From the NCBI GenBank assembly GCA_035420565.1, contig DAOLVF010000002.1, positions 5,896-69,895 on the forward strand: DNA of 64,000 nt, written 5' to 3'. The position numbers and the translations under genes are program-made. The stretch comes from Spirochaetota bacterium (GTDB lineage: Bacteria > Spirochaetota > UBA4802 > UB4802). Below, one piece after another: positions 6,774-58,159 of this stretch (the first letter of the stretch is position 1; each line of letters begins with the position of its first letter). Under the pieces are notes generated by a model. That model did no database searches, was not told the origin of the DNA, and saw nothing but the letters and a program-made list of their open reading frames with translations.

Positions 6774-8402
6774 CTATTTGGGAATCTGTAGCCGCTGCTT
6801 CACTTCTTCCAGTTGCTTTGACAATTCTTTGTTATCCCATCGCAGCTCTTTTGCTGCTGTTTCAGCCACCAGTGTCAGTTTATCATTACCGGGATTTCCA
6901 GCCGTGCAAATACCTGTTCGCCTGAAGACAATATCAGGCAACGTACGAGCCATTTCATGGCGGATAGCATAAATTACCTCAGCCAGAATTTCCCCATCAT
7001 GGGTTACTATCTCCCTGAACTTTTTATTTGACCCAGCTATTTTGATTACAGTATCAACTTCAGTGCCAAAGTATTTTGCCAGCACCTCAAGGGACTTTTT
7101 ATCCAGCAAAGAATTTGAGGTGTAAACAGTATTAAAAAATATCTCTAAATCTTTTATTTCACACCCTGCTAAATACTGTTTATGAGTTATGGATTTTGGT
7201 AACGAATATTGTAGTTTTTTTTCAACAACCTTCATTACCTTGACCGCTAAATTTCTGCTGGTTGTATATTTCCCACCCTCAACCGTTATAAGTCCCTGAA
7301 CGCCTTCTTCCGAATTATCGTAAATTTCATATCGCCGTGAAGATTGGTAGGTACCTTCAACCTGATCATCAACCAGAGGTCGCAAGCCTCCATAGGTATA
7401 CTTTATATCATTATACGATAAAGTACCATCACCAAAATATTCATTAACATCGTCAAGTAATTCCTGAATACTCTCTCTGGTTACCCGATAGTTATCGGGA
7501 TTACCAATATATTCCTTATCAGTTGTGCCAATAAGGGTATATCCTCGCCAGGGTATCAAAAAGAAATGCCTGCCCTTTTTGCTCATCAACGTTACAGCAT
7601 ATTTATGTACTATAGGTTTTGTGATGATATGAATCCCTTCTGACCTTCTAATCTGGTGTTTTACAGTGCCATTTTCAGCCTTTTTTAAGATTATATCTGC
7701 CCATGGGCCACCGCAGTTTATGACAAGCTTTCCTTCAACATCTATTTCTTTATTGTTCAAAGTATCGTAAACGATAACACCAGCGATTGAGTTATTACGA
7801 TACAAAAAGTCTTTTACTTCAGCATAATTTGCAACCTTTGCCCCATAGTTCACCGCAGATTTTATAAATGATAGTGTTAACCGTTCAGGGAAGATACTCT
7901 GGCAATCATAGTAGATAGTAGCCGCAGTCAGCCCTTCAGATTTCAGATTGGGTTCTTCCTGTAATGCCTTTTCCCTGCTAATTTGAGAGTGTACGGGTAT
8001 TTTTTTTGATCTATCCCATGTCCAGCCTTTATCAAATGAAAGAATATCGTACATGATCATACCCATCTTTAGAACCCAGCGGTTATTGAGCAGCCTTTTA
8101 TAATTGGGTATCATGAATGGAAAAGGGTACACCAGCGTAGGGGCAATATTCTCTAATATTCTTCGTTCACGTAAGGACTCTCGCACCAGGGAAATCTCCA
8201 TGTTCGCAAGGTATCGTAATCCTCCATGGATAAGCTTGGAGGTTGCAGCCGAAGTAGCCCATCCAAAGTCTTTTTTCTCCAGCAGTGCAACATGTAAACC
8301 CCTTGTTGCGGCTTCATATGCCACAGCAGCACCGGTAATGCCGCCACCAATGATAATAACATCAAACTGCTCTTTGTTATTTTCTTCAATAAAACGTTTC
8401 AT
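6774..8402 (-). CDS. glpA: FAD-dependent glycerol-3-phosphate dehydrogenase (GlpA/GlpD family)
   Basis: FAD dinucleotide motif FDVIIIGGGITGAAVAYEAATRGLHVALLEKKDFGWATS and a DAO domain with a C-terminal helical domain. The true start, MKRFIEENNKEQ at 8402, lies 5 nt after the gntR stop. The first 103 aa of the 644-aa ORF are an artefact. Confidence 0.85.
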   Translation of the reverse strand: MKRFIEENNKEQFDVIIIGGGITGAAVAYEAATRGLHVALLEKKDFGWATSAATSKLIHGGLRYLANMEISLVRESLRERRILENIAPTLVYPFPFMIPNYKRLLNNRWVLKMGMIMYDILSFDKGWTWDRSKKIPVHSQISREKALQEEPNLKSEGLTAATIYYDCQSIFPERLTLSFIKSAVNYGAKVANYAEVKDFLYRNNSIAGVIVYDTLNNKEIDVEGKLVINCGGPWADIILKKAENGTVKHQIRRSEGIHIITKPIVHKYAVTLMSKKGRHFFLIPWRGYTLIGTTDKEYIGNPDNYRVTRESIQELLDDVNEYFGDGTLSYNDIKYTYGGLRPLVDDQVEGTYQSSRRYEIYDNSEEGVQGLITVEGGKYTTSRNLAVKVMKVVEKKLQYSLPKSITHKQYLAGCEIKDLEIFFNTVYTSNSLLDKKSLEVLAKYFGTEVDTVIKIAGSNKKFREIVTHDGEILAEVIYAIRHEMARTLPDIVFRRTGICTAGNPGNDKLTLVAETAAKELRWDNKELSKQLEEVKQRLQIPK

Positions 8403-8406
8403 AGCA

Positions 8407-44929: not shown

Positions 44930-47608
44930 ATGGTAATGGTAAAATATTGTATAACTATAGTGTTAAGTTTATATATAGTGGCGATAGTTACTGTTGATGC
45001 ATCTTCAGATATCATAGGTCATGATACCGTTACTATGTATTGTAGTGGAGATTCACAAGCACTCGCTGAACAGTATGTAAACGGTGCGCAAAACCTTACA
45101 ATACCAAACCTGCTCATTTTAGCGGATAGTGAACATATACAGCAGATAATTGGAATTGAAAAAACAATAGAACTGCTGGAATTGCTTTCTACCAATGCAC
45201 AATCACCATACGAAAAAATGTTTATCAACGATATTGCAGATATATCAAAAGAACGTTTCTATAAAAACGATGTAAAAGGAAATCAACGCTGGTATATCTA
45301 TGATAATAGTAAGGAACCAATGCCCAAAAGCGTGATATCTTTCCAAACACAACTGGATACCCTAATACTTCCTGATAAAAACAAAATAGCAGTAATGCAA
45401 TCATGCGCGGGGTATATACCTGTAAAGCAATACACCCAGATTTTACACGCAACAGGACTATGCAGCGCATCGTTTGAATTACATAAACCGGTTTCTATGT
45501 ATGTTTTTTCCAATATGGAGTATGCCATTTTTATCAATGGAACAAAAGTATGTGTTAATACGACAACAACAGTAAAAAAAGATGCTCGAATCATTCATAT
45601 TGAACCACAGGAGGGATTCAGCATAGCAATATATTACAAACCAGACAATGATATGTACTTAAAAATACTGTTTCGTGATGAAACCAATGCAACGATGCAG
45701 TTACCTGCTACCGACACCATGTATTATAATCCTGTTAACTGTTATGAGATATTCTATGAATATCAAAATCAACTTCTGTCAAACTATATGAGCAACCATT
45801 CGCCTGATAATGCACTGCAACTTGCTCTTTTTTCAGAATCAATTCACAGCACAGAGGCTTTCAAATATTATCATCAAGCATTGCGTTCACACAACGATTT
45901 TATCTCATACCGATTGTGTTCATTGCTACTGAGGTATAGCCGTGCATTCCCGGATAGCATTTTGTTGTTGAGAACTAACGTGCAAAAAAATATACAACCT
46001 CAAACAGTGCTGGGTGGCTATTTTTACGATATGCTCTATTCACCAGAGTCCATGAATATTGCAGAAATACAGTGGCTACCCATACTTATACAAACTTTAT
46101 ACATCCAAAAAGAAGAACTCATTAATAAAAAAGCAGATTTAGATTTTTTGTTCAAACGCTTTCCGCAAAGCCATGAACTTGCCTTTACCATAGCATCTAT
46201 CTATTCATCCTATGATAATCACAAGGCGACAACAATATTGGAAACATATAAAAACCTCAATGATAAGGAGCTTACATTGCTGATTCACTGCTATACTGAA
46301 AATAAACAATTTGAAAAAATAGTAACTATCCTTTCTGGTGTCAGGGAACATACATTTTTTTATGATTATATCAATGCCCTCATTGCACTTGGTAAGTATG
46401 GTGAAGCAAAGAGCGCTTTGTTTAAAACAATTGCACAGGGTTTTGACACTGAAGCTTATGCGCTATTAGCCACAATAGCTCAATTAGAAGGCTATGACGC
46501 CAGCATGTATAGTCAAAAGCATCATGCGATTGTCAATAGTCTTGTTGTGCATCCCGATTATATGAAAGCCACTTTTGATGATTACGTGCAAAATTATTTT
46601 TTTAAACAGCTTGCTTATGAAATTATCAATCATACCACAAACAAATTAATGTATTCATGTTATGCAGTGCGGATGGTTCATGATGCACTATATTGTACCA
46701 TATACGACGCATACCATTGTACTGATATATCCGTATTCAATACCTACCAATTTTCTCCCGACACTGAGAATATTAGTTATACTCTCTATGCATACAATAA
46801 CGAAGGGAAAATGAAATCATACACCTTTTATCCCGGCAACTATACAATACAACAGAAGATACAGGAATATTTACACGATAGTCACTGTGAATTTTTTGTA
46901 ATAGCGATATCATTTCGATTGCGAAAAAACATCGATATAATGCATATACAACAAAATTACAAGCAATCACCATTTACGCTGGATATTATCGTTTTATCTC
47001 CTGAATCAGATGTAACCATATCGGGAACAATGCGCCTCAATGAAATAACAACCAATGTTAGGTATATTCATCACTATACCTGCAATAGTAATGAATTGTT
47101 ATCGCCAAACAATAGGGAATTTGTTATCATGGCTATCCAACCACAAGCATTAATTACATGGATAGAAGAACAGAATGCCCTGTTTAAACGCGGCATTGAA
47201 CTCTTAGACATAAAAGAAATTCAGGGCAACTCAATAGATGAGGCAATACACGAGGTGCTCCAGGAACTACAAACCTATACTATTGCCGATAATGTTTATG
47301 GTATCACTTCTATAGTACAATGGACTCTTCTGCATAAAGGAACACAGCTTGATGCTATGCTCTACGCACGATACCTATTAGCTAAAAAAGGTATTATATC
47401 CTGCATTGCGCTGGGGGATTCACACAAAAAGATTGTTGCTAAAAAAAATAATCTTTATTTTGATACAGTGTTTCTGTATATACCATTAACCCCTGATAAG
47501 GGGATATGGTTAACTTATAAAAACTCATACCCCTCATCAGAAGTACTCAATATATCAAATATTTTACTTATTGTGGGTGGTGAGATTATCAGCAAACAGA
47601 GCAACTAA
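44930..47608 (+). CDS. large hypothetical protein (892 aa) with an N-terminal signal anchor
   Basis: Uninterrupted ORF with coding-like composition. No confident domain call; possibly TPR-like helical repeats in the mid-region. Confidence 0.5.
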   Translation: MVMVKYCITIVLSLYIVAIVTVDASSDIIGHDTVTMYCSGDSQALAEQYVNGAQNLTIPNLLILADSEHIQQIIGIEKTIELLELLSTNAQSPYEKMFINDIADISKERFYKNDVKGNQRWYIYDNSKEPMPKSVISFQTQLDTLILPDKNKIAVMQSCAGYIPVKQYTQILHATGLCSASFELHKPVSMYVFSNMEYAIFINGTKVCVNTTTTVKKDARIIHIEPQEGFSIAIYYKPDNDMYLKILFRDETNATMQLPATDTMYYNPVNCYEIFYEYQNQLLSNYMSNHSPDNALQLALFSESIHSTEAFKYYHQALRSHNDFISYRLCSLLLRYSRAFPDSILLLRTNVQKNIQPQTVLGGYFYDMLYSPESMNIAEIQWLPILIQTLYIQKEELINKKADLDFLFKRFPQSHELAFTIASIYSSYDNHKATTILETYKNLNDKELTLLIHCYTENKQFEKIVTILSGVREHTFFYDYINALIALGKYGEAKSALFKTIAQGFDTEAYALLATIAQLEGYDASMYSQKHHAIVNSLVVHPDYMKATFDDYVQNYFFKQLAYEIINHTTNKLMYSCYAVRMVHDALYCTIYDAYHCTDISVFNTYQFSPDTENISYTLYAYNNEGKMKSYTFYPGNYTIQQKIQEYLHDSHCEFFVIAISFRLRKNIDIMHIQQNYKQSPFTLDIIVLSPESDVTISGTMRLNEITTNVRYIHHYTCNSNELLSPNNREFVIMAIQPQALITWIEEQNALFKRGIELLDIKEIQGNSIDEAIHEVLQELQTYTIADNVYGITSIVQWTLLHKGTQLDAMLYARYLLAKKGIISCIALGDSHKKIVAKKNNLYFDTVFLYIPLTPDKGIWLTYKNSYPSSEVLNISNILLIVGGEIISKQSN

Positions 47609-47610
47609 AT

Positions 47611-47706
47611 TTATCGCCCTATCTTCTTTGCCATTAGTTTCTTTTTTCTTTTGAGTCTTCGTTTAGCTCGTTTTCGTTTAATCCTTGGATTATACTGCTT
47701 GCTCAT
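47611..47706 (-). CDS. possible 31-aa ultra-basic peptide (MSKQYNPRIKRKRAKRRLKRKKKLMAKKIGR)
   Basis: ATG preceded by AAAGGAGA with 11-nt spacing. 58% K/R. Below the ORF-track size cutoff and of unknown function. Confidence 0.3.
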   Translation of the reverse strand: MSKQYNPRIKRKRAKRRLKRKKKLMAKKIGR

Positions 47707-48010: not shown

Positions 48011-48706
48011 CTATAGCCCTCTGATGTCACAGTAAGTGGCAAAGGTTTGGACAAATTGGCGGAACAATAATAATATTTCTTCTGGATAAGGTTTTACTCT
48101 GTGTAAGTCTTCATCCATTGTGTGATCATTGTTAAATTGCTGTAAATAATAATGGGATACCTGACCAATCTGTTCTTTAATGCTATGTAAATCTTCTAAT
48201 GTTACAAATTCTGGCACACAGGTAGTGCGCACCTCAAATTGGATATCAAAATCTTTAAGCAAACGAATAGATTCTTTGATACAATTAAACGATAACTTTG
48301 TTTTTGTTAAAAGCGAATATTTTTGAGGAGATGTCTTTATATCTATTGCAACATAATCAACAAGATTTTTTATTATAATTTTTTTTAGAATATCAGGCTG
48401 GAAACCGTTGGTATCTAATTTTATTTTCATTCCCAGCGATTTAATATTTTCAAGAAATTGCAGTATCCCTTTTGCAATCGTTGGTTCACCACCTGTCAGT
48501 ACTACCGCTCCAATGAGATGTTTTCTACTTCGTAAAAGATCAATTACTTCTTCATTTGAATAATAGTGTAGGTTACAATCATTATATGCTAATGATGGAT
48601 TATGACAATAACTACACCGCAAATTACATCCCCCGGTAAAAAGTACTGTACTAATAGCACCCGGATAATCAATGAGTGATGTTTTCTGTATACCCCGAAT
48701 ATTCAT
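48011..48706 (-). CDS. nrdG: anaerobic ribonucleoside-triphosphate reductase activating protein (radical SAM)
   Basis: DYPGAISTVLFTGGCNLRCSYCHNP (C-x3-C-x2-C) and GGEP motifs. Lies directly downstream of the nrdD pieces. Confidence 0.85.
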   Translation of the reverse strand: MNIRGIQKTSLIDYPGAISTVLFTGGCNLRCSYCHNPSLAYNDCNLHYYSNEEVIDLLRSRKHLIGAVVLTGGEPTIAKGILQFLENIKSLGMKIKLDTNGFQPDILKKIIIKNLVDYVAIDIKTSPQKYSLLTKTKLSFNCIKESIRLLKDFDIQFEVRTTCVPEFVTLEDLHSIKEQIGQVSHYYLQQFNNDHTMDEDLHRVKPYPEEILLLFRQFVQTFATYCDIRGL

Positions 48707-48860
48707 GATCTACAACCTTTAATAATTCTTTTGCCATGAATTCCTTTCTTTCATGAAACTCTTCCTGCTTGCCTTTATTCCATTGATTCACAGGTCGGAA
48801 ATAACCAACAACACGAGAATATACCTCAACAGGTATTTTCTTTTCAGTATTTCTTTGCAT
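48669..48860 (-). CDS. nrdD: stand-alone C-terminal glycyl-radical segment of class III ribonucleotide reductase (NrdD fragment)
   Basis: SRVVGYFRPVNQWNKGKQEEFHERKEF carries the NrdD glycyl-radical motif R-V-x-G-Y and the flanking conserved WN-GKQ-E residues. It has its own GGAGG RBS 8 nt upstream of the ATG. Confidence 0.7.
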   Translation of the reverse strand: MQRNTEKKIPVEVYSRVVGYFRPVNQWNKGKQEEFHERKEFMAKELLKVVDHEYSGYTENITH

Positions 48861-49231: not shown

Positions 49232-51319
49232 TTACGAGACAATCCGATGGGTTGTCTCTATGGGTTTTGATAATTCTCTATCTTCTATTTCGACTTCTAT
49301 TCCAAACATCTCAAGCTCTTCTTTTGTATGTGGATAAGGACAATATGTGTGATTCCCAGGTATATATCCATGAACAGGGCAAATACTAAATGTTGGCGTA
49401 ATGGTAAAATATGGTATGTGATAGTTATAAGCTATTGATTTTACCAGTATTTTTACCATTTCCGGATCATCAATCTTCTCTCCAATAAAACAGTGAACAA
49501 CGGTACCGCCGGTAAACTTTGCTTGTAACTGATCCTGATGGTCAAGGAGATCAAATATATCGTGAGCATATCCCACCGGTGGATGGATCGAATTTGTATA
49601 ATATGGTTCATTCTTACCAGAGGTAATAATGTCCGAAAATCTATTTTTATCATGTCGTGCAAACCTATAGCTAACGCCTTCAGCAGGGGTAGCTTCAAGA
49701 TTATATAAATTGCCTGTCGCATGCTGATACATGACTATTTTACTGCGCATAAAATCCAGCACTTCCCCGGTGAAAGCTTTTCCTTCATCAGTTGTAATGT
49801 CCTGCCCTAAAAGGTTTAAACAGGCTTCATTCATACCAACAAGTCCAATTGTTGAAAAATGATTTATCCAGTACTTCTTAAATCGTTTATATACATCACG
49901 GAGATAGAATCTGGTATAGGGATAAAGATTGTTAGAAGTAAAGTTTTCTAAGACTTTTCTTTTGATCTCAAGTGAATTGCTTGCTACATCCATCAAATGT
50001 GATAAACTTGCAAGGAATTCATCCTTTGATTTAGAAAGGTATCCTAACCTTGGCATATTAATGGTTACCACACCTATACTTCCCGTTAAAGGATTAGCTC
50101 CAAAAAGCCCACCACCTCGTTTTCGCAGTTCACGATTATCAAGCCTTAATCGGCAACACATCGAGCGGGCATCATCAGGATCCATATCAGAATTTACAAA
50201 GTTTGCAAAGTATGGGATACCATATTTAGCGGTTATCTCCCATAAAAGATGTATGGAAGGATTATCCCAATCAAAATCTTTTGTGATGTTATACGTTGGT
50301 ATAGGAAATGTAAAAATTCGGTGTCGCGCATCACCCTCAAACATACATTCTGCAAAAGCAGTATTAAATATATCCATCTCTTTCTGAAATTCAGCATAGA
50401 TTGCATCCATACTTTCTCCACCAATAATGACATGTTCATTGGCAATTGAGCGAGGTACGGTCAGATCCATGGTAACATTGGTAAATGGCGTCTGGAATCC
50501 TACACGAGTTGGTATGTTCATATTAAAGATGAATTCCTGGAGACACTGCTTAACACCTGCATAATCCAGATTATCATACCGTATAAATGGCGCAAGGTAC
50601 GTATCAAAGTTTGCAAATGCCTGTGCACCGGCTGATTCCCCCTGTAATGTATAAAAAAAATTGACTATCTGCCCCAATGCGCTTCGGAAATGTTTTGCCG
50701 GCCTGCTTTCAACCTTTCCGGGAACTCCTCCAAAACCAGTTAATAATAAATCTCGCAAGTCCCAGCCTACACAGTAAGCCGACAGCAAACCTAAATCATG
50801 AAGATGCAGATCACAATTGGTATGAGCATCGCGTATCTCAGGTGGATAAATACGTTCAAGCCAGTATTTTGCAGTAATTGCAGAAGCAATATGGTTATTT
50901 AATCCCTGAAGAGAATAACTCATATTACTATTCTCATTTACCCGCCAATCTGACCTATCAAGATAATCTTCAATGAGCTGGATTCCTTCATTAAGAAGGT
51001 CTTTACTTTCTCGTATCTTTCTGTGCTGTTCACGGTAGAGGATATATGCTTTAGCTACCTTAGCATGCCCTTTCTCAATGAGCATCTTTTCAACTAAATC
51101 CTGAACATTTTCTACCGTCGGGATATGTTCATCCTTATACAATATGGATAATATATCAACAACTGATTCGGCAATATGTACTGCTGCATTCCTATCGGTA
51201 CCACCAACTGCTTTTGCTGCTTTAAAGATTGCTTCTGTGATCTTTTCAATATCAAATGGCACTATTCTGCCATCACGTTTCCTTATAAACTGAGGGGTTG
51301 TTGTTATTACATCTGACAT
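49232..51319 (-). CDS. nrdD: anaerobic ribonucleoside-triphosphate reductase, large body (ATP-cone + 10-strand barrel), lacking the glycyl-radical C-terminus
   Basis: N-terminal ATP-cone VIKRDGRIVPFDIEKI and class III RNR barrel similarity throughout. The C-terminus ends ...CPVHG...YCPYPH (zinc-ribbon remnant) with no RVxGY motif. True start at 51319; the first 42 codons of the ORF are an artefact. Confidence 0.9.
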   Translation of the reverse strand: MSDVITTTPQFIRKRDGRIVPFDIEKITEAIFKAAKAVGGTDRNAAVHIAESVVDILSILYKDEHIPTVENVQDLVEKMLIEKGHAKVAKAYILYREQHRKIRESKDLLNEGIQLIEDYLDRSDWRVNENSNMSYSLQGLNNHIASAITAKYWLERIYPPEIRDAHTNCDLHLHDLGLLSAYCVGWDLRDLLLTGFGGVPGKVESRPAKHFRSALGQIVNFFYTLQGESAGAQAFANFDTYLAPFIRYDNLDYAGVKQCLQEFIFNMNIPTRVGFQTPFTNVTMDLTVPRSIANEHVIIGGESMDAIYAEFQKEMDIFNTAFAECMFEGDARHRIFTFPIPTYNITKDFDWDNPSIHLLWEITAKYGIPYFANFVNSDMDPDDARSMCCRLRLDNRELRKRGGGLFGANPLTGSIGVVTINMPRLGYLSKSKDEFLASLSHLMDVASNSLEIKRKVLENFTSNNLYPYTRFYLRDVYKRFKKYWINHFSTIGLVGMNEACLNLLGQDITTDEGKAFTGEVLDFMRSKIVMYQHATGNLYNLEATPAEGVSYRFARHDKNRFSDIITSGKNEPYYTNSIHPPVGYAHDIFDLLDHQDQLQAKFTGGTVVHCFIGEKIDDPEMVKILVKSIAYNYHIPYFTITPTFSICPVHGYIPGNHTYCPYPHTKEELEMFGIEVEIEDRELSKPIETTHRIVS

Positions 51320-51597
51320 ATAAAGACTCCCAAAAAAGAAATAAACCAACACGATCACTGTATAGCACACAATGCGATGGTTATTATTAGCTTGATAAGA
51401 TATGTTTTTGTATATTACGTTAGAATAATAAAATAAAAAAGTCAATCATAATTATGTCACGTAACAAAAAAAAATGAAACACTAAACATATATTTATATA
51501 AATCACTATAGTATAAATATTACGCAAAAATTTAAATTGTACTTTGAGATGGTATTACCGATAGTTACACTATATTAACTACAAAGAGGTATGAAGT

Positions 51598-52122
51598 ATG
51601 GTTATAAATAAAATTCCAGCAATACTGAGCTTAATACTCTTTATGACTATAGAAATAGTATTACCTGGCATGGTTTATTCAGATGACACCACTACCTTTA
51701 ATACATTACGAATATCTTCTGAAGATATTCCTGCTGGGTTCATGTTTGGGGAAATACCACAGTTTGCAAAAAAGGTATTCCCGGAAAATCCCTGTATTGT
51801 TAGCACTGAAGGTATCCAGTTTTTAGCTGGCAAGCTTTATCCTGAGGGCAATCCATATAATATCAAAAACATGTATGTTGCAATAATGTCAGAATCATCA
51901 CGGCCATTTGGTGATGATATAGTATGTTATGTGCTCATGTTTAAGGATCAAACATCTGCTTCAAGCGAGATAAAAAAAATTCAGGAATTCTATAAATATA
52001 ATAAGGATAGGATAGTTTTGATAATAAAAGGGCAGATAGCAATTATGTTATTTGCTGATGATATAAATAATTACAAATATATTGCAGAATTAGGTAACAA
52101 ACTATCAAGCAAGCTTGATTAA
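51598..52122 (+). CDS. hypothetical exported protein
   Basis: N-terminal signal/anchor helix. No motif. Confidence 0.45.
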   Translation: MVINKIPAILSLILFMTIEIVLPGMVYSDDTTTFNTLRISSEDIPAGFMFGEIPQFAKKVFPENPCIVSTEGIQFLAGKLYPEGNPYNIKNMYVAIMSESSRPFGDDIVCYVLMFKDQTSASSEIKKIQEFYKYNKDRIVLIIKGQIAIMLFADDINNYKYIAELGNKLSSKLD

Positions 52123-52547
52123 TAAATATTTCTGGTAATTAACATCTCCTCTAATTCATCAGCTTTTGCAGCAATATAAACAAGCGATTTCATAAACCGC
52201 TGAGGGTCGCAATCTTTAAGCAATAAAGAATTACGTAAAATAAGTGTATCATTTAATAATGCCAAAGCGCCATAGTCAAAAGTACTATTGAGTTTTAATG
52301 AAAATTTATATAATTCAAAAGATTCATTCTTGATTGTCCCAATTACAGAATAATAATTAATTATTCTATCTCCAGATTCATCTTTATTAAGAGTAATTAA
52401 TATCTCCTGAGATCGGTTATTTTCAAATTCTATCGTCGTTGTATATGCACCCTCTGAAGTTTTATTGAACTTCATTTTAAATTCTGATGCTATTGCCGCT
52501 ATAAAACCGTCAAAAAGCTCCATATTCCACCCTTTCACAATAATCAA
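52119..52547 (-). CDS. hypothetical protein, possibly YbjN-like (type III secretion chaperone-like fold)
   Basis: About 140 aa, acidic. Weak resemblance to the YbjN family (LALLNDTLILRN). Low certainty. Confidence 0.35.
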   Translation of the reverse strand: MIIVKGWNMELFDGFIAAIASEFKMKFNKTSEGAYTTTIEFENNRSQEILITLNKDESGDRIINYYSVIGTIKNESFELYKFSLKLNSTFDYGALALLNDTLILRNSLLLKDCDPQRFMKSLVYIAAKADELEEMLITRNIY

Positions 52548-52550
52548 TAA

Positions 52551-53225
52551 TTATGATAACAACTTTTTAACATTGTCATGATGTAACGGTTGATGAACCA
52601 TAAAAGCGTTTGATGCATTGTCTTCTATAATTTTCTTAATAACTTTTATATCAGGACTATCGTTATCGGCAACTCCTAAAGCACGTGATAGTGTTTGCTT
52701 ATAGCTTTCAAGTATTTGTGAGTTATTAATTAAACTATTATGTATAGCATTCATTGTTTTTATATCATTGTTAGCAACCGCTTTCTGTAGTTGAGTAATT
52801 TCTTGAGATGATCCTGCAACAACATCAGCAGGTGGGATAGCAGGAACATTTGCTGTACCAGGTGATAACCTGTTAAAATAGCTGTCTATGGTAGCAAGTT
52901 TAGCAATTATTTCTGTATAACTGGATTCTTTAGAATAAGCTTTTTGTATAAGTTCAAACGAAATGTTAAGAGCCATAGTAACAAGCTTATGAGCTTCCTG
53001 GACAACCGTATATGCAGAAATCGTTTTTTGCAACGATACATGATGCTGTACATTATTTACTTGTGCAACAGGCACACCTGTTTTTCTGCCTGTTGATGGG
53101 ACCATCATTGACGGTACAGGCAAATCATTTGATATCCTCATGTAATCCCCTCCCTGATCACCAGTAAGTGTAGTATATGGAATTAATAATGTCAACAGTA
53201 AAATTTTGAAGATCAAAAAAATCAA
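52551..53225 (-). CDS. hypothetical protein, operonic with the YbjN-like gene
   Basis: 224-aa ORF with a 4-nt gap to the downstream gene. No motif. Confidence 0.4.
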   Translation of the reverse strand: MIFLIFKILLLTLLIPYTTLTGDQGGDYMRISNDLPVPSMMVPSTGRKTGVPVAQVNNVQHHVSLQKTISAYTVVQEAHKLVTMALNISFELIQKAYSKESSYTEIIAKLATIDSYFNRLSPGTANVPAIPPADVVAGSSQEITQLQKAVANNDIKTMNAIHNSLINNSQILESYKQTLSRALGVADNDSPDIKVIKKIIEDNASNAFMVHQPLHHDNVKKLLS

Positions 53226-53296
53226 TATTGAAAAATTACAACATGTGTTGTATGTTTGTAAATATAAGAATATATTTATATAATGGATTATACTCT

Positions 53297-53494
53297 ATGA
53301 AGAAGATAGTAATTTGTTTAATAATATCTATTCTGTTTTTTGGGGTATCGTGCAAAAAAAATGATGATAACAAAGTACCCATGGAACAGATACAGATCGA
53401 TGGATCACATGATTTTTCTATCATTTTTAAAGATATTATCGAGAAAGAAAAAAAAGATGCCAGCCGATATAAAAAGGGACCCTTTGATGAATAA
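53297..53494 (+). CDS. small lipoprotein (65 aa)
   Basis: MKKIVICLIISILFFGVSC lipobox. The stop overlaps the next start (ATGAATAA). Confidence 0.45.
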   Translation: MKKIVICLIISILFFGVSCKKNDDNKVPMEQIQIDGSHDFSIIFKDIIEKEKKDASRYKKGPFDE

Positions 53495-54152
53495 GCTCAT
53501 AATTATTCCTGAAGACAAATTGATTGCATATTGCCTCAATTTGTCACACCCTGCACTGGAATCAGTGGTTATACGCGAATGTGTTGATCCTCTATGTAAT
53601 GGAGATAATCCCTCACTATACCGCAGGCATTTTTCACTGTTTCATGCTTTATATACCATTAAGACCTGCCCACAATATTTTCACTTAATGGTATATATCC
53701 ATCCTATGGATATTGTTATACGAAGCTATCCCACAAACAATGCGTGTATTCATTATGATCCCTGGTGCGATGCCTTTTGTAATAGAGAAACAGTTGATGG
53801 AATATATTGCTCGTTTCACTATGAATTTTATGAACCATACAATCATAATTGCCTCTATGATCCATTAATGAAATTTTATTGTGATTCATATAATATTAAT
53901 TATGAATTTTCAGTTGAGCTCAACAAGGTTTACCATGGTTTTAAGAAATATATTGCCAGTCTCAAGGAGGTGGAGAAGGCTTTATTTTTCTTTCAATTTA
54001 ATGCAATAGATACCTGTAACAGATCATTGTTACAGAAGCGTTACAGGGAACTGGTAAAAAAATACCATCCCGATAGGTATAACGGTGATATGGCGATGAT
54101 TAAACAGATTAATGAACACTACAGCTTGTTGAAAGAAATCGTTGTAATATAA
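53487..54152 (+). CDS. Cys/His-rich protein with a C-terminal J-domain (HPD motif)
   Basis: RYRELVKKYHPDRYNGDMAMIKQINEHYSLLKE is a J-domain helix II-III with HPD. Upstream are about 14 Cys and 12 His in 150 aa. Confidence 0.55.
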   Translation: MNKLIIIPEDKLIAYCLNLSHPALESVVIRECVDPLCNGDNPSLYRRHFSLFHALYTIKTCPQYFHLMVYIHPMDIVIRSYPTNNACIHYDPWCDAFCNRETVDGIYCSFHYEFYEPYNHNCLYDPLMKFYCDSYNINYEFSVELNKVYHGFKKYIASLKEVEKALFFFQFNAIDTCNRSLLQKRYRELVKKYHPDRYNGDMAMIKQINEHYSLLKEIVVI

Positions 54153-54304: not shown

Positions 54305-55450
54305 ATGAAAAGAAAAATATTACAGATAGTTCCATGTATACTTCTCATTGGTGTAGTTTTCTTTGTTTTTAATAATTTTTCCTGTTCAAATAGCGAACCT
54401 TCAGTATTTGGCAATAATAGCAGTTCACCATTGAAGGGGCATCAGGAAACAGCTCGTGCTATTGAGATTCAAGATGCTTTCAGGAAAATCTATGAACTAT
54501 ATAAGGACAGGGTAGTTTTTATTACAACCGAACAGGTGGTTGAGTTGCCTCCAAACCCTTTTTTTGATGATCCCTTTTTCCGCCAATTTTTTGGGATTCC
54601 CCAACAAAAATCACGTAAACAAAAACGTTCCGGATTGGGGAGTGGTTTTGTTCTATCAAGCGATGGTTATATCTGTACTAACTACCATGTCATTGCGAAT
54701 GTTGATTCAGTAAAGGTAAAGGTTAAAAATAAAGAGTACGAAGCTACAATTGTTGGATATGACCAGAGAACAGATTTGGCATTACTGAAAATAAATCCTG
54801 GCGATAAGCTTGAACCTGTTTTTTTAGGTGACTCTGATCAAGTAAAGGTTGGAGATTGGGCAATTGCTATTGGAAATCCCTTTGGGTTGGACCGTACATT
54901 TACTGTTGGAGTTATTAGTGCTACAAGCCGAAAGGATGTAGATATGATGGGTGGTTCACAGTCGCATATACAGACTGATGCAGCAATTAACCCCGGAAAT
55001 TCTGGTGGGCCTCTGGTTAATATTAATGGGGAGGTTATAGGCATTAACCGCATGATTTATTCCCAGAGTGGTGGCTATATGGGGATTGGATTTGCAATCC
55101 CTATTAATACGGCTAAGTCTATTTTAGAGCAGTTAAAGAAGTATAAAAAAGTTAAAACCGGCTATATTGGCGTACAGATAGTTCCATTGACAGAGGAATA
55201 TGCAAACGAATTGGGGCTTAAAAATACTGAAGGTGCTCTTGTTGGTGGTATTATGGAAAACAGCCCTGCTGAAAAAGCTGGTATACAACCAGGTGACGTC
55301 ATTATATCAGTTGATGATAAAAATATCAAATCATATGAAGATCTTATAGAAATTGTTAACAAGACACCTATTGGCAAAACCTTAAAAGTTGGCGTATGGC
55401 GTAATAAACAAAAAATCTACTTATTTGTTACGGTAAAAGAAAGGCCTTAG
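54305..55450 (+). CDS. htrA: HtrA/DegP-family periplasmic serine protease (trypsin domain + PDZ)
   Basis: Catalytic His (TNYHVI), Asp, and Ser (GNSGGPLVN). C-terminal PDZ. Confidence 0.9.
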   Translation: MKRKILQIVPCILLIGVVFFVFNNFSCSNSEPSVFGNNSSSPLKGHQETARAIEIQDAFRKIYELYKDRVVFITTEQVVELPPNPFFDDPFFRQFFGIPQQKSRKQKRSGLGSGFVLSSDGYICTNYHVIANVDSVKVKVKNKEYEATIVGYDQRTDLALLKINPGDKLEPVFLGDSDQVKVGDWAIAIGNPFGLDRTFTVGVISATSRKDVDMMGGSQSHIQTDAAINPGNSGGPLVNINGEVIGINRMIYSQSGGYMGIGFAIPINTAKSILEQLKKYKKVKTGYIGVQIVPLTEEYANELGLKNTEGALVGGIMENSPAEKAGIQPGDVIISVDDKNIKSYEDLIEIVNKTPIGKTLKVGVWRNKQKIYLFVTVKERP

Positions 55451-55461
55451 ATATTAAAAGC

Positions 55462-55680
55462 ATGCACAGTATGAATAAGTACACACATTATATATTAATA
55501 ATAGCGGGAATAGTTGCTGTGGGATATATAACCTTTCGCTATATTATCCCGCTATTATTTAAATTAATAAGCTTTATAGTAGGCTTTTTGGCTTATGGAG
55601 CAGCAGTTGTTTTAGCTGTAGCGATAGTATTAATAATTATTGGCTATATTGTTCGGATGTACAAAACTCATTCTCAGTAA
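55462..55680 (+). CDS. small 2-TM membrane protein
   Basis: 72 aa, two hydrophobic helices. Lies between htrA and the PBP1A gene. Confidence 0.35.
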   Translation: MHSMNKYTHYILIIAGIVAVGYITFRYIIPLLFKLISFIVGFLAYGAAVVLAVAIVLIIIGYIVRMYKTHSQ

Positions 55681-55756: not shown

Positions 55757-58159
55757 GTGAAAGAGCGTTTGAAAGCCTGCTTAAACAGTTTTAAACAGTT
55801 TATAATTAAATACATGCATGACACACGCACATGGTTTTACGGGATTATAGTAGTATCACTCATCGGCGGTTTGCTTTTTGGGTATATTGTTGCTCAGGTA
55901 CAAAATTGTCTTGGTATAGATAATCTAAAGCGTTTCCAGCCAAGTGTTCCTACTAAACTGTATGATGTTAACGGTGAACTTATTGCCGAACTTTTTCAAG
56001 AAAAACGTGATTTAGTATCATTTGAAGAACTTCCAAAAACATTGATAAGGGCGTTTGTTGCAACTGAGGATCAGGACTTCTATACGCATATAGGAATAAG
56101 TCCTATGGCAATGACACGGGCAATGGTTAAAAATATTATTTCTCTTAAAATTGCACAGGGCGGCTCAACCATTACCCAGCAATTGGCAAAACGGCTTTTT
56201 ACGTCAGGCGAAAGAACATTTACCCGTAAAGCATTAGAATTAGTTTTAACATTGCAAATTGAAAAGAAATTCTCCAAAGATGAAATTCTTGAAATGTACT
56301 TTAACCAAATTTATTTAGGACACGGATGTTATGGGATTGCATCTGCTGCTGAGCTTTTCTTCAATAAAGAGGTTAGATTTCTTAGCCTTGCCGAAGGAAG
56401 CGTTTTAGCTGCATTACCTTCAGCTCCTGGTCGGTACTCCCCATTTATGAATACCCGTAATGCTTATATTAAAAATTGGGATATTTTAAACAGAATGGTT
56501 GACTGCGGCTATTTAACTAATGAAAAAGCTAAAGAAGTATATACCTCTTTCTGGCCCATTTTTGTTGATACCATAAAAACTGAATTTCCTACTAAAACCG
56601 CATATTCAAAAATCGTGGATAATGCCCCATTTTTTACAGATTATGTACGTCAGATACTTATTTCCCGATATGGCAAGGATGTAGTGTATAATGAAGGATT
56701 GCAAGTATATACCACATTAAACTTGAAACGACAACAAGCAGGTGAAAAATATCTTGTGGAAGGTTTAACCAGGCAAAATGAGATATCTGCTCGTGCCAAT
56801 CAATATCTTTCAGGAGCTGTTGATAGAGGATTATTCTCTGTATACCAGCAATTAGGACTTCTTTTTAATTTACCCAGAATTATCGTCAAAAGTGATACAG
56901 AAACAATATTCAAAAAATATATGGTTGATAATCTGTTGAATGAAATGGAGCTTTTAGCGTTATTATGCAATGTTGATGCAATGCATAATGATATTGAAAA
57001 ATTTATGATAGTAACCAGTGGGATTTCTTCTTCATTAAAAGTTGAAGGGGCTCTTATAGCTATTGAACCTAAAACTGGATATATAACGACAATGGTTGGT
57101 GGATCAGAATTTGCTGTGAGCAATCAATATAACAGATCAACTCAGGCTCGCCGTCAGCCTGGATCAGCATTTAAACCATTTGTTTATGGTGCAGGTATTG
57201 AGTCAAAATTAATTAATACAGCCATGGCTCTTCCAGATGCACCTATTGTTGATATTGATGCTCAGGGAAGCACCTGGAGCCCGAATAACTATGAAGGCGA
57301 ATTTATGGGAATGGTTCATTTAAGGAGGGCTCTTGCCGCATCAATCAATGTAATTTCAGTACGGATATATGATATCATAGGTGCAGATACTATCATAGAT
57401 TTTGCATCACGCGTATTAAAGGTTTCTCCTTCACGCTTCCATCCCGGGCCATCATTAGCTTTAGGAAGTTCAGAATTAACACCATTAGAAATGGCAACAG
57501 GATATGCGATTTATGCTAACAGAGGGAGGGATGTCATTCCATTTTCCATTCGTTATATTACCGATAGAGATGGCAACGAAATAGAAAATATTGAAGAAGA
57601 TGTTGGCAATATCATTGCAGCAAAAGAAGCAGACGGTTCAATTCAGATTATTCCCGAAAATGTAAATTATATAATGACATCATTAATGCAGACTGTTGCC
57701 GAAGGAGGTACACCTACTGAGGCTTTGCGCTTAATTGCAAAATTTGACAAAAAATGTGCAGGCAAAACAGGCACTACTCAAAACTGGACAGATGCATGGT
57801 TTTGTGGTTTTACTCCTGATATTGCAACAGTTGTTTGGGTTGGATATGATAAACCTTTTATGTCATTGGGACGACATCAGGCTGGTGCAGCAGTAGCAGC
57901 GCCCATATGGGGATTTTACATGAAGGAAGTTTACAATGGAATGCCGGATCCTCAATGGCCAGCTCAACCAAAAGATGTTTTTTATGGTGCTACCTGTAAA
58001 TATTCAGGCTGTGCACCTGGTCCAAATTGTCATGAATTAATCAGTGATTTAATGATACCTGGCGGAACTCCTCGTTGCATTTGTAATGGAATACACTATA
58101 ATATGAAATCTGTTTTTGAACAATATATGGAAAAAGAAGGTTTAAAAAATGAGGATTAA
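55757..58159 (+). CDS. mrcA: penicillin-binding protein 1A (bifunctional transglycosylase/transpeptidase)
   Basis: GT51 motifs (RAFVATEDQDFYTH, GGSTITQQLAK), transpeptidase SAFKP (SxxK), SxN and KTGT. Confidence 0.9.
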   Translation: MKERLKACLNSFKQFIIKYMHDTRTWFYGIIVVSLIGGLLFGYIVAQVQNCLGIDNLKRFQPSVPTKLYDVNGELIAELFQEKRDLVSFEELPKTLIRAFVATEDQDFYTHIGISPMAMTRAMVKNIISLKIAQGGSTITQQLAKRLFTSGERTFTRKALELVLTLQIEKKFSKDEILEMYFNQIYLGHGCYGIASAAELFFNKEVRFLSLAEGSVLAALPSAPGRYSPFMNTRNAYIKNWDILNRMVDCGYLTNEKAKEVYTSFWPIFVDTIKTEFPTKTAYSKIVDNAPFFTDYVRQILISRYGKDVVYNEGLQVYTTLNLKRQQAGEKYLVEGLTRQNEISARANQYLSGAVDRGLFSVYQQLGLLFNLPRIIVKSDTETIFKKYMVDNLLNEMELLALLCNVDAMHNDIEKFMIVTSGISSSLKVEGALIAIEPKTGYITTMVGGSEFAVSNQYNRSTQARRQPGSAFKPFVYGAGIESKLINTAMALPDAPIVDIDAQGSTWSPNNYEGEFMGMVHLRRALAASINVISVRIYDIIGADTIIDFASRVLKVSPSRFHPGPSLALGSSELTPLEMATGYAIYANRGRDVIPFSIRYITDRDGNEIENIEEDVGNIIAAKEADGSIQIIPENVNYIMTSLMQTVAEGGTPTEALRLIAKFDKKCAGKTGTTQNWTDAWFCGFTPDIATVVWVGYDKPFMSLGRHQAGAAVAAPIWGFYMKEVYNGMPDPQWPAQPKDVFYGATCKYSGCAPGPNCHELISDLMIPGGTPRCICNGIHYNMKSVFEQYMEKEGLKNED

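Follow-up and report, generated by a model that had tools for sequence, protein, structure and literature searches.

The window analysed here, a 64,000-nucleotide stretch of DNA from an uncultured Spirochaetota lineage, contains a block of five genes, which we refer to as g1 to g5. The genes, the intergenic region between g3 and g4, and the two genes downstream of the block are as follows:

51598..52122, plus strand: g1, 174 aa, exported protein with a predicted Sec signal peptide, undescribed family
52119..52523, minus strand: g2, 134 aa, acidic protein with a predicted class I T3SS chaperone / YbjN fold
52551..53141, minus strand: g3, 196 aa, disordered N-terminus and helical body, remotely flagellin-like; first gene of the g3-g2 operon
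53142..53296, no strand: g3/g4 divergent intergenic region, probably containing both promoters
53297..53494, plus strand: g4, 65-aa predicted lipoprotein with lipobox ...GVSC, divergent from g3
53487..54152, plus strand: g5, 221 aa, J-domain protein in Pfam DNAJ_related (PF12339), predicted to be cytoplasmic
54305-55450: htrA, downstream of the block
55757-58159: PBP1A gene, downstream of the block

All five open reading frames are present in the window, and gene calling recovers them on many independent contigs from metagenomes and MAGs; each also has homologues in other species. Judged by these calls and homologues, they are genuine conserved genes of this lineage. The g1 and g2 genes are convergent, their 3′ ends overlapping by 4 nt, while g4 and g5 share 8 nt (GATGAATAA). 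Both this overlap and the proximity of htrA and the PBP1A gene to the block agree with the initial annotation. The same annotation had described g3 as a 224-aa protein encoded 4 nt from g2, and both values require revision. The start codon of g3 is ATG 53141, with a Shine-Dalgarno sequence (GGGAGGGG) ahead of it, giving a length of 196 aa in all gene calls and homologues. For g2, the start lies at ATG 52523, yielding 134 aa; the listed homologues all measure 132-151 aa, nearly all of them 134. The gap between the two genes is therefore 27 nt. Within the g3/g4 intergenic region, consensus-like promoter sites occur at 53195-53167 (minus strand) and 53256-53284 (plus strand), no more commonly than in shuffled sequences. 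The promoter and terminator scan of the block likewise did not rise above chance, and an Rfam scan of 48.5-56 kb returned no match. The GC skew changes sign near 51.5 kb; a replication origin at this point was rejected, as throughout the window the skew tracks the strand of the genes, and DnaA boxes are about as frequent as expected by chance.

Scans of all five proteins against Pfam, NCBIfam, PADLOC, and PHROGs yielded only PF12339, DnaJ, and sub-threshold CesT-type matches, the last of which concern g2. The AF2 model of this protein (pLDDT 89.3) adopts the alpha-beta fold of class I T3SS chaperones and YbjN, in which a beta-sheet is flanked by helices alpha1-alpha3. Its mass of 15.4 kDa and pI of 4.8 fit the size and acidity by which class I T3SS chaperones are defined (PMC13466201), bearing out its earlier description as a small, acidic, YbjN/T3SS-chaperone-like protein. 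The Pfam subfamily scores of g2 all fall under their cut-offs, including that of PF22550 (19.1 bits, cut-off 27), which matches 15 of 16 g2 relatives with E never better than 1.9e-5. PF10722 touches only two of these 16 relatives, and weakly, and the CesT-type models fit better; this sets g2 apart from the YbjN family, represented by E. coli YbjN, Erwinia AmyR, and Deinococcus DR_1245. A search of PDB sequences with an HMM profile of the g2 family gave noise only.

In the g3 protein, a disordered N-terminal region of ~35-60 residues, devoid of a Sec signal, precedes a body made of helices; the C-terminal helix (AL.AQGNI..E....LL) is conserved. When a profile of 41 family members was aligned to the flagellin core using hhalign, we obtained a score of 41.4 with an E-value of 1.8e-5 and a probability of 78%; a separate run gave an E-value of 2.4e-4 and a probability of 43%. 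The long forms of g3 align with flagellin end to end (1-238 on 2-271, E 7e-5). Observed scores ranged from 35 to 41, compared with 11.6-22.6 for the controls, which comprised reversed profiles (11.6-16.5), column shuffles (13.0±2.1), and block shuffles (16.2±2.6, maximum 22.6). The short forms, to which the g3 of the window belongs, are homologous to the long forms with a probability of 99.2%, and the window clade taken alone reaches a P of just 0.04 against flagellin.

In these alignments, g3 follows the D0-D1 core of flagellin and FlgL colinearly, first with its N-terminus (MKI..N), then with a helix of the pattern ALSIAQ.A.....L.IS.RLRN.A, and last with the C-terminal helix; like that core, it is all-helical with disordered termini. 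In contrast, the D0 segment with its LSSG.RIN...DDAAG signature is absent from g3, where a variable low-complexity region takes its place, and a regular-expression search for this signature found no instance in the window or in any locus examined. None of 24 g3 members matched the Pfam flagellin models (PF00669 / PF00700) at E up to 1, and the g3 HMM retrieved only coiled-coil noise from the PDB. The predicted structure of g3 has a pLDDT of 59.5 and derives from a shallow alignment; designed helical bundles score equal to FlgL against it. Comparisons with FlgN, FlgK, and E. coli FlgL gave no match, and identity with FlgM was rejected, as neither Pfam nor hhalign lent it support. Taken as a remote similarity, the profile alignments indicate that g3 is possibly flagellin-derived.

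Of the genes on the plus strand, g1 begins with a hydrophobic signal sequence (KD19 2.26), in line with the export originally proposed for its product; neither the protein nor its family profile matched Pfam, NCBIfam, or PDB sequences. The signal peptide of g4 ends, as judged by eye, in a lipobox cysteine (...ILFFGVSC), consistent with its previous assignment as a lipoprotein. Among 37 relatives of g4, the small-residue-Cys motif is found in most, whereas a few are anchored by a segment that is not cleaved, and the mature peptide of ~45 residues is conserved.

The g5 protein consists of an N-terminal PF12339 domain, in which the motif CX10CX9CX2H lies, and a J-domain at the C-terminus; the latter has the HPD signature (KKYHPDRY) and stops right after helix III. 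Its PF12339 score of 28.2 bits exceeds the cut-off of 25, its PF00226 score of 25.9 bits falls just below the cut-off of 27.8, and all 36 relatives match both PF12339 (best E 5.9e-13) and PF00226 DnaJ; the earlier view that no gene of the block could be annotated with confidence is thus not quite accurate. The J-domain is genuine, as initially proposed: the family profile matches solved J-domains (E 5e-13) and HPD is invariant. Beyond HPD, the family-invariant residues are C87, C98, C108, and H111. The protein has 11 Cys and 11 His; of the dense Cys/His region noted previously, only these four residues are conserved family-wide; C16 and C37 are conserved among close relatives only, and the remaining cysteines are specific to the lineage of the window. 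The invariant CCCH motif is a probable zinc site, and a TRM13 CCCH zinc finger is matched by four of the 36 relatives.

Assignment of g5 to better-known J-proteins was considered and rejected, in agreement with its earlier placement outside the DnaJ/CbpA/DjlA types. The NCBIfam DnaJ models, taken for DnaJ/CbpA, give 20 bits against cut-offs of 338-377, and HscB gives 18.5 bits against 46.75, with the J-domain alone aligning in both cases, and neither the G/F region, CxxCxGxG zinc domain, and C-terminal domains of DnaJ/CbpA nor the C-terminal bundle of HscB; the membrane segment of DjlA is absent. The architecture, the length of ~215-250 aa, HPD, and CX10CX9CX2H are those of the PF12339 J-proteins throughout, from which g5 differs in nothing essential, merely carrying extra non-conserved Cys and His. 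By these profile matches, g5 is a class C J-domain protein of the catalogued, uncharacterised DNAJ_related (PF12339) family. We detected neither a signal peptide nor a membrane or hydrophobic segment in g5, and the protein would therefore act in the cytoplasm.

To relate the block to its wider genomic context, we compared loci centred on g2 in 80 species. The g3 gene lies directly upstream of g2 on the same strand in 38 of them, g1 adjoins g2 in 30, g4 is present in 31 (divergent from g3 in 25), and g5 is found in ten. In a further ~38 species, g2 is solitary, flanked by genes for an M28 peptidase and for PHO4. The g3 gene remains beside g2 even though its own identity across species declines to 13-23%, far below the 62-99% of g2. 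As delimited by these neighbourhoods, the conserved unit is g4 together with g3-g2 and g1, and it is only in the clade of the window, a narrow group of spirochetes, that g5 has g4 on one side and htrA on the other. A metagenome scan centred on g5, with a 12-sequence alignment as query, returned 40 loci, in which other block genes were kept only in the eight closest. Of 30 distant loci with a g5 homologue, 29 contain none of g1, g2, g3, g4, and htrA, and no recurrent neighbour dominates (at most seven loci). The g5 gene has no demonstrable tie to envelope genes, and the proposal that the five genes form one module is not borne out. We favour, and think rather probable, the reading that separate units lie side by side in the block, a g4/g3-g2/g1 neighbourhood being juxtaposed with a cytoplasmic PF12339 J-protein.

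Within this juxtaposition, g2 and g3 are likely to be a chaperone-client pair, as suggested by the predicted fold of g2 and the gene order; g2 would bind g3 while both are in the cytoplasm, serving this client as chaperone or regulator. The chaperone-plus-cargo arrangement put forward in the initial annotation is thus reasonable given the adjacency in 38 of 80 species, but agrees less well with the solitary g2 loci. The pair resembles the class IA T3SS chaperones encoded next to their effectors, such as SicP-SptP, ExsC-ExsE, and CesT-Tir: g2 matches such chaperones in fold, size, and acidity, and its neighbour has a disordered, Sec-signal-free N-terminal region. The pair departs from them in that the host is a spirochete, with an injectisome neither known nor seen at the loci examined, in the sub-threshold Pfam subfamily scores of g2, and in the conservation of g2, which is much better than that of its client. 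We infer, with less support, that g3 might be handed to the flagellar type III exporter, which would be the sole type III exporter of a spirochete. In this case, g3 would end in the periplasm, which could then be the common site of the exported g3, g1, and g4.

Alternatively, g2 could be a cytoplasmic protein of the YbjN type, active in stress or regulation and with a main role independent of g3, the latter being an unrelated helical protein with a flagellin likeness arising from composition and periodicity, in an operon that has no link to secretion. That g2 is highly conserved, and stands alone in about half of the species, suggests another function or a partner besides g3, and members of T3SS-chaperone/YbjN-type families also occur in bacteria lacking a T3SS (PMC13466201). 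The missing Pfam flagellin match and the low confidence of the g3 model are also compatible with such a role. However, the hhalign scores of g3 lie ~7 SD over block shuffles in an alignment colinear to both termini, and g3 stays beside g2 in 38 species despite an identity of less than 25%, which leaves this alternative doubtful, if still deserving of serious consideration.

A more specific form of the chaperone-client reading, which we regard as distinctly unlikely, would make g4, g3-g2, and g1 an accessory to the periplasmic flagellum of spirochetes, as a module specific to this lineage. Here, a flagellin-derived g3, now without the N-terminal D0 segment, would be piloted to the flagellar exporter by a class I CesT-fold chaperone, and g3 would then act in the periplasm alongside a Sec-exported protein and a small lipoprotein. 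A short secreted flagellin homologue is known in Campylobacter FlaC. Searches with E. coli flagellar queries found neither flagellar nor injectisome genes in the loci examined, which sample few neighbourhoods and are hence uninformative on this point. Class I chaperones have been seen as partners of injectisome effectors, whereas flagellar substrates use helical chaperones, the flagellin chaperone FliS being of the helical class III type and not CesT-fold (PMC13466201). If the proposal holds true, a flagellar-type substrate would for the first time be served by a class I chaperone. Such a CesT-fold protein, tied to a flagellin-like partner in spirochetes, would blur the division between injectisome and flagellar chaperones, and the module may include parts or regulators of periplasmic flagella that have so far gone unnoticed. 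The g3-g2 pair, if confirmed, would matter more than g5; it stands as a computational lead in uncultured organisms, not as a discovery.

The chaperone-client pair could also operate by regulatory switching of partners, in the manner of ExsE-ExsC or FlgM. In this scenario, g3 would be a small secreted or decoy regulator mimicking flagellin termini, and its export or degradation would free g2 for another conserved partner. A precedent is provided by CesT, which binds CsrA besides effectors (PMC13466201). The conservation and solitary loci of g2 fit a second conserved partner, and the flagellin-like C-terminal helix is the best-conserved part of g3. We nevertheless consider the switch improbable, as g3 is unlike FlgM, no sigma-28, CsrA, or FliW genes were seen near g3-g2, and the scheme is wholly inferential.

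The initial annotation had viewed g4, the Cys/His-rich g5, htrA, and PBP1A as an envelope-stress or periplasm-facing quality-control module in which the five genes act jointly, and this we hold to be highly improbable: the 8-nt g4/g5 overlap, the position of htrA 152 nt downstream of g5, the g4-g5 adjacency that persists down to 38% g5 identity (in locus L110, and also in L031), and the co-directional htrA downstream of g4 in 16 of 31 species speak for it, but g5 is devoid of a signal peptide or membrane segment, bacterial Hsp70 is cytoplasmic, 21 of the 31 species with g4 have no g5, distant g5 loci have neither g4 nor htrA, and htrA is preceded by a promoter-like site of its own, itself weak evidence. 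Synteny in close relatives spans nrdG to CarD and is therefore uninformative on linkage within the block. The neighbourhood data already largely refute the module, and the two outcomes that the initial annotation had named as counting against it, a known-family match for the J-protein and no conserved linkage of the five genes, are largely what we observed, with PF12339 matched throughout the relatives of g5.

By analogy with established J-domain biology, the C-terminal J-domain of g5 would recruit DnaK through HPD and stimulate its ATPase activity, while the N-terminal domain with its probable zinc site would select the client. The N-terminal domain of the PF12339 family is without a solved structure, these proteins have no described function, and the literature library searched contains no paper on them; g5 is one more member of a widespread J-protein family without known function. 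The protein library searched, with 1.84 billion entries, contains 486 clusters of this family, and the family-wide CCCH motif found here offers a handle on zinc binding and client recognition.

The block comprises five genes, all of them real. Gene calls on numerous independent contigs, from metagenomes and MAGs, contain the same five with identical products. They occupy the following window positions:

51598-52122, plus strand: g1, ORF for an exported protein
52119-52523, minus strand: g2, ORF for a chaperone-fold protein of 134 aa; ATG 52523, with AAGGGTGG just ahead of the start
52551-53141, minus strand: g3, ORF of 196 aa; ATG 53141, with GGGAGGGG just ahead of the start
53297-53494, plus strand: g4, ORF for a lipoprotein
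53487-54152, plus strand: g5, ORF for a J-domain protein

The initial annotation had begun both g3 (given as 224 aa) and g2 at over-extended TTG codons, leaving a 4-nt gap; since they start at ATG 53141 and ATG 52523, the gap is 27 nt. The 8-nt overlap of g4 and g5, the g4 lipobox, the KKYHPDRY motif of g5, and the htrA and PBP1A genes downstream of the block were all confirmed. At 52119-52122 the convergent g1 and g2 share 4 nt of coding region, with TTAA common to both stop codons. This leaves no space for terminators, and the two transcripts must therefore overlap in antisense.

The window comes from an uncultured Spirochaetota bacterium. Its g2 is 99% identical to that of UBA2205 contig DCUV01000060.1, and the window also matches anaerobic-digester metagenomes. 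The gene order runs rpmH-rnpA-yidD-yidC-jag-mnmE, an 892-aa gene, nrdG/nrdD, the block, htrA, a small membrane protein, PBP1A and CarD. Relatives whose g5 is about 60% identical keep the full nrdG-to-CarD order, so synteny among them is uninformative on functional linkage.

Using the g2 alignment as query and one genome per species, we obtained 80 species loci, all from uncultured Spirochaetota, to which iterated HMMs for the individual genes were then applied. In 38 of the 80, g3 immediately precedes g2 on the same strand; 30 contain g1, which in nearly all cases is convergent on g2. g4 occurs in 31 of these loci, htrA in 19 and g5 in only 10. Among the 31 g4-bearing species, 25 have g4 and g3 in divergent orientation, and 16 have htrA downstream of g4 and co-directional, with g5 between g4 and htrA in 10. 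g2 stands alone in about 38 species, usually flanked by genes for an M28 peptidase and PHO4; 34 of them form one cluster on the g2 tree (loci L023-L056 and others), so that one rearrangement accounts for most. In the opposite direction, scanning metagenome contigs with a g5 alignment yielded 40 loci. The eight most similar (≥38% identity) retain g4, g3, g2 and g1, and the distant ones (30-37% identity) contain no g1-g4, no htrA and no dominant recurrent neighbor. Together, the two scans show that the five genes are not conserved as one unit: what is conserved is a core of g4, g3-g2 and g1, and g5 is a local insertion.

In the 34-species cluster g2 is monocistronic (e.g., 8001-8405 in locus L036), typically with the M28 peptidase gene divergent and the PHO4 phosphate-transporter gene convergent; it is still 62-75% identical to the window copy, which for a protein of this fold class is unusually high conservation. 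In three species (loci L088, L091 and L092) a g4-type lipoprotein gene precedes htrA by about 200 nt, on the same strand; g3 is missing and g2 is 5-7 kb away, an arrangement that hints at a separate g4-htrA link.

g5 scores 28.2 against PF12339, above the gathering score of 25, and 25.9 against PF00226, narrowly below 27.8. Among 1.84 billion representatives, a profile search returned 486 clusters at E ≤1e-3 and 78 at E ≤1e-10, most matches being full-length (215-250 aa). All 36 sampled members match both PF12339 and DnaJ (best E about 6e-13), and 4 of the 36 also match the TRM13 CCCH zinc finger. Invariant across the 36 are only E25, H48, F49, C87, C98, C108, H111, Y131 and HPD; the previously described dense Cys/His region consequently comes down to a single CX10CX9CX2H motif shared by the whole family, which is probably a zinc site, plus lineage-specific extras. 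The family profile matches solved J-domains (E 5e-13), and no solved structure covers the N-terminal domain. A curated-model scan and sequence analysis bear out the placement of g5 outside the DnaJ, CbpA, DjlA and HscB types. It is a new member of the known but functionally undescribed PF12339 family, on which our literature search found no paper. g1 and g4 both bear export signals and represent two new small families, restricted to this lineage, outside which no relatives were detectable.

g2 has 292 homologs; among the 120 matches listed, identity is never below 68% and the length is nearly always exactly 134 aa. Of 16 relatives, 15 matched PF22550 (CesT_Tir_1), 11 TY-Chap1, 4 CesT and 2 YbjN, no match reaching the curated cut-off. 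AlphaFold predicts the g2 structure with confidence (pLDDT 89.3, pTM 0.83), and the size (15.4 kDa) and pI (4.8) agree with the textbook description of class I T3SS chaperones (PMC13466201). The suggested pairing of chaperone and cargo for g2 and g3 has support from fold and synteny. Because g2 is far more conserved than g3 and solitary in half of the species, we argue that it also has a partner or role not involving g3; it may act in an ExsC-like partner switch, or may have a generic YbjN-type function.

The g3 family (44 matches, 41 distinct sequences) is fast-evolving, with 13-23% identity to the window protein outside its own clade. Its members keep MKI..D/N at the N-terminus, a low-complexity segment that is variable and about 35-60 residues long, the helix ALSIAQ.AQ.....AL.IS.RLRN.A and a C-terminal I..NP..AL.AQGNI..E....LL, and have neither a Sec signal nor a membrane segment. 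With HMMER, none of 24 members matched any Pfam family, flagellin models included, and the PDB search gave coiled-coil noise only. As the motifs resemble flagellin, we compared g3 by hhalign with the D0/D1 core of eight real flagellins from E. coli and plasmid records. The score was 36.1 for 24 sequences (P 1.4e-4, probability 52%) and 41.4 for 41 (E 1.8e-5, probability 78%); a second run gave E 2.4e-4 and probability 43%. The 30 long forms aligned end to end (1-238 versus 2-271, E 7e-5), and all alignments were colinear, terminating at both C-termini. Controls scored far lower: 11.6-16.5 for reversed profiles, 13.0±2.1 (maximum 20.1) for column shuffles and 16.2±2.6 (maximum 22.6) for 14-column block shuffles. 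The short-form clade of the window reached only P 0.04 by itself; its homology to the long forms is secure (probability 99.2%, E 7e-20). The LSSG.RIN/DDAAG segment sought as a mark of flagellin membership is missing from g3. A derivation from the flagellin superfamily appears moderately probable from these profile comparisons; FlgM, FlgN, FlgK and FlgL of E. coli gave no match.

Starting from the folds, motifs and gene order observed here, a mechanism can be outlined. By analogy with established J-protein biology, g5 would recruit cytoplasmic DnaK via HPD, and its putative zinc-containing N-terminal domain would pick the client. Fold and operon structure suggest that g2 is a cytoplasmic binding partner of g3. 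More tentatively, g3 could be exported to the periplasm via the flagellar type III apparatus, given its Sec-less disordered N-terminus, flagellin-like termini and spirochete setting. Spirochete flagella reside in the periplasm, which exported g3 would share with them and with g1 and g4. The g3-g2 pair would add a new version to the chaperone-client theme, one in which the client is possibly derived from flagellin. The earlier interpretation as an envelope quality-control module was not upheld.

Several further features were observed around the block. Two separate ORFs encode the anaerobic ribonucleotide reductase (48669-48860 and 49232-51328, both minus strand): the 695-aa NrdD ORF terminates ahead of the glycyl-radical motif, and a separate 63-aa ORF, which overlaps nrdG, bears ...VEVYSRVVGYFRPV.... 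The pieces lie 371 nt apart in the window, where Rfam has no match in the gap, and 42 and 3 nt apart in the relatives' loci L006 and L008; L011 and L012 have the same layout. The 892-aa protein (44930-47608, plus strand) has an N-terminal signal sequence and no Pfam match, and every close relative keeps its gene between mnmE and nrdG. Between htrA and PBP1A, a 72-aa protein (55462-55680, plus strand) consists almost entirely of two hydrophobic segments and has homologs at the same position in 12 of the 80 species loci. A 31-aa ORF at 47611-47706 (minus strand) is nearly all Lys/Arg (MSKQYNPRIKRKRAKRRLKRKKKLMAKKIGR) and is also called as a gene in L008.
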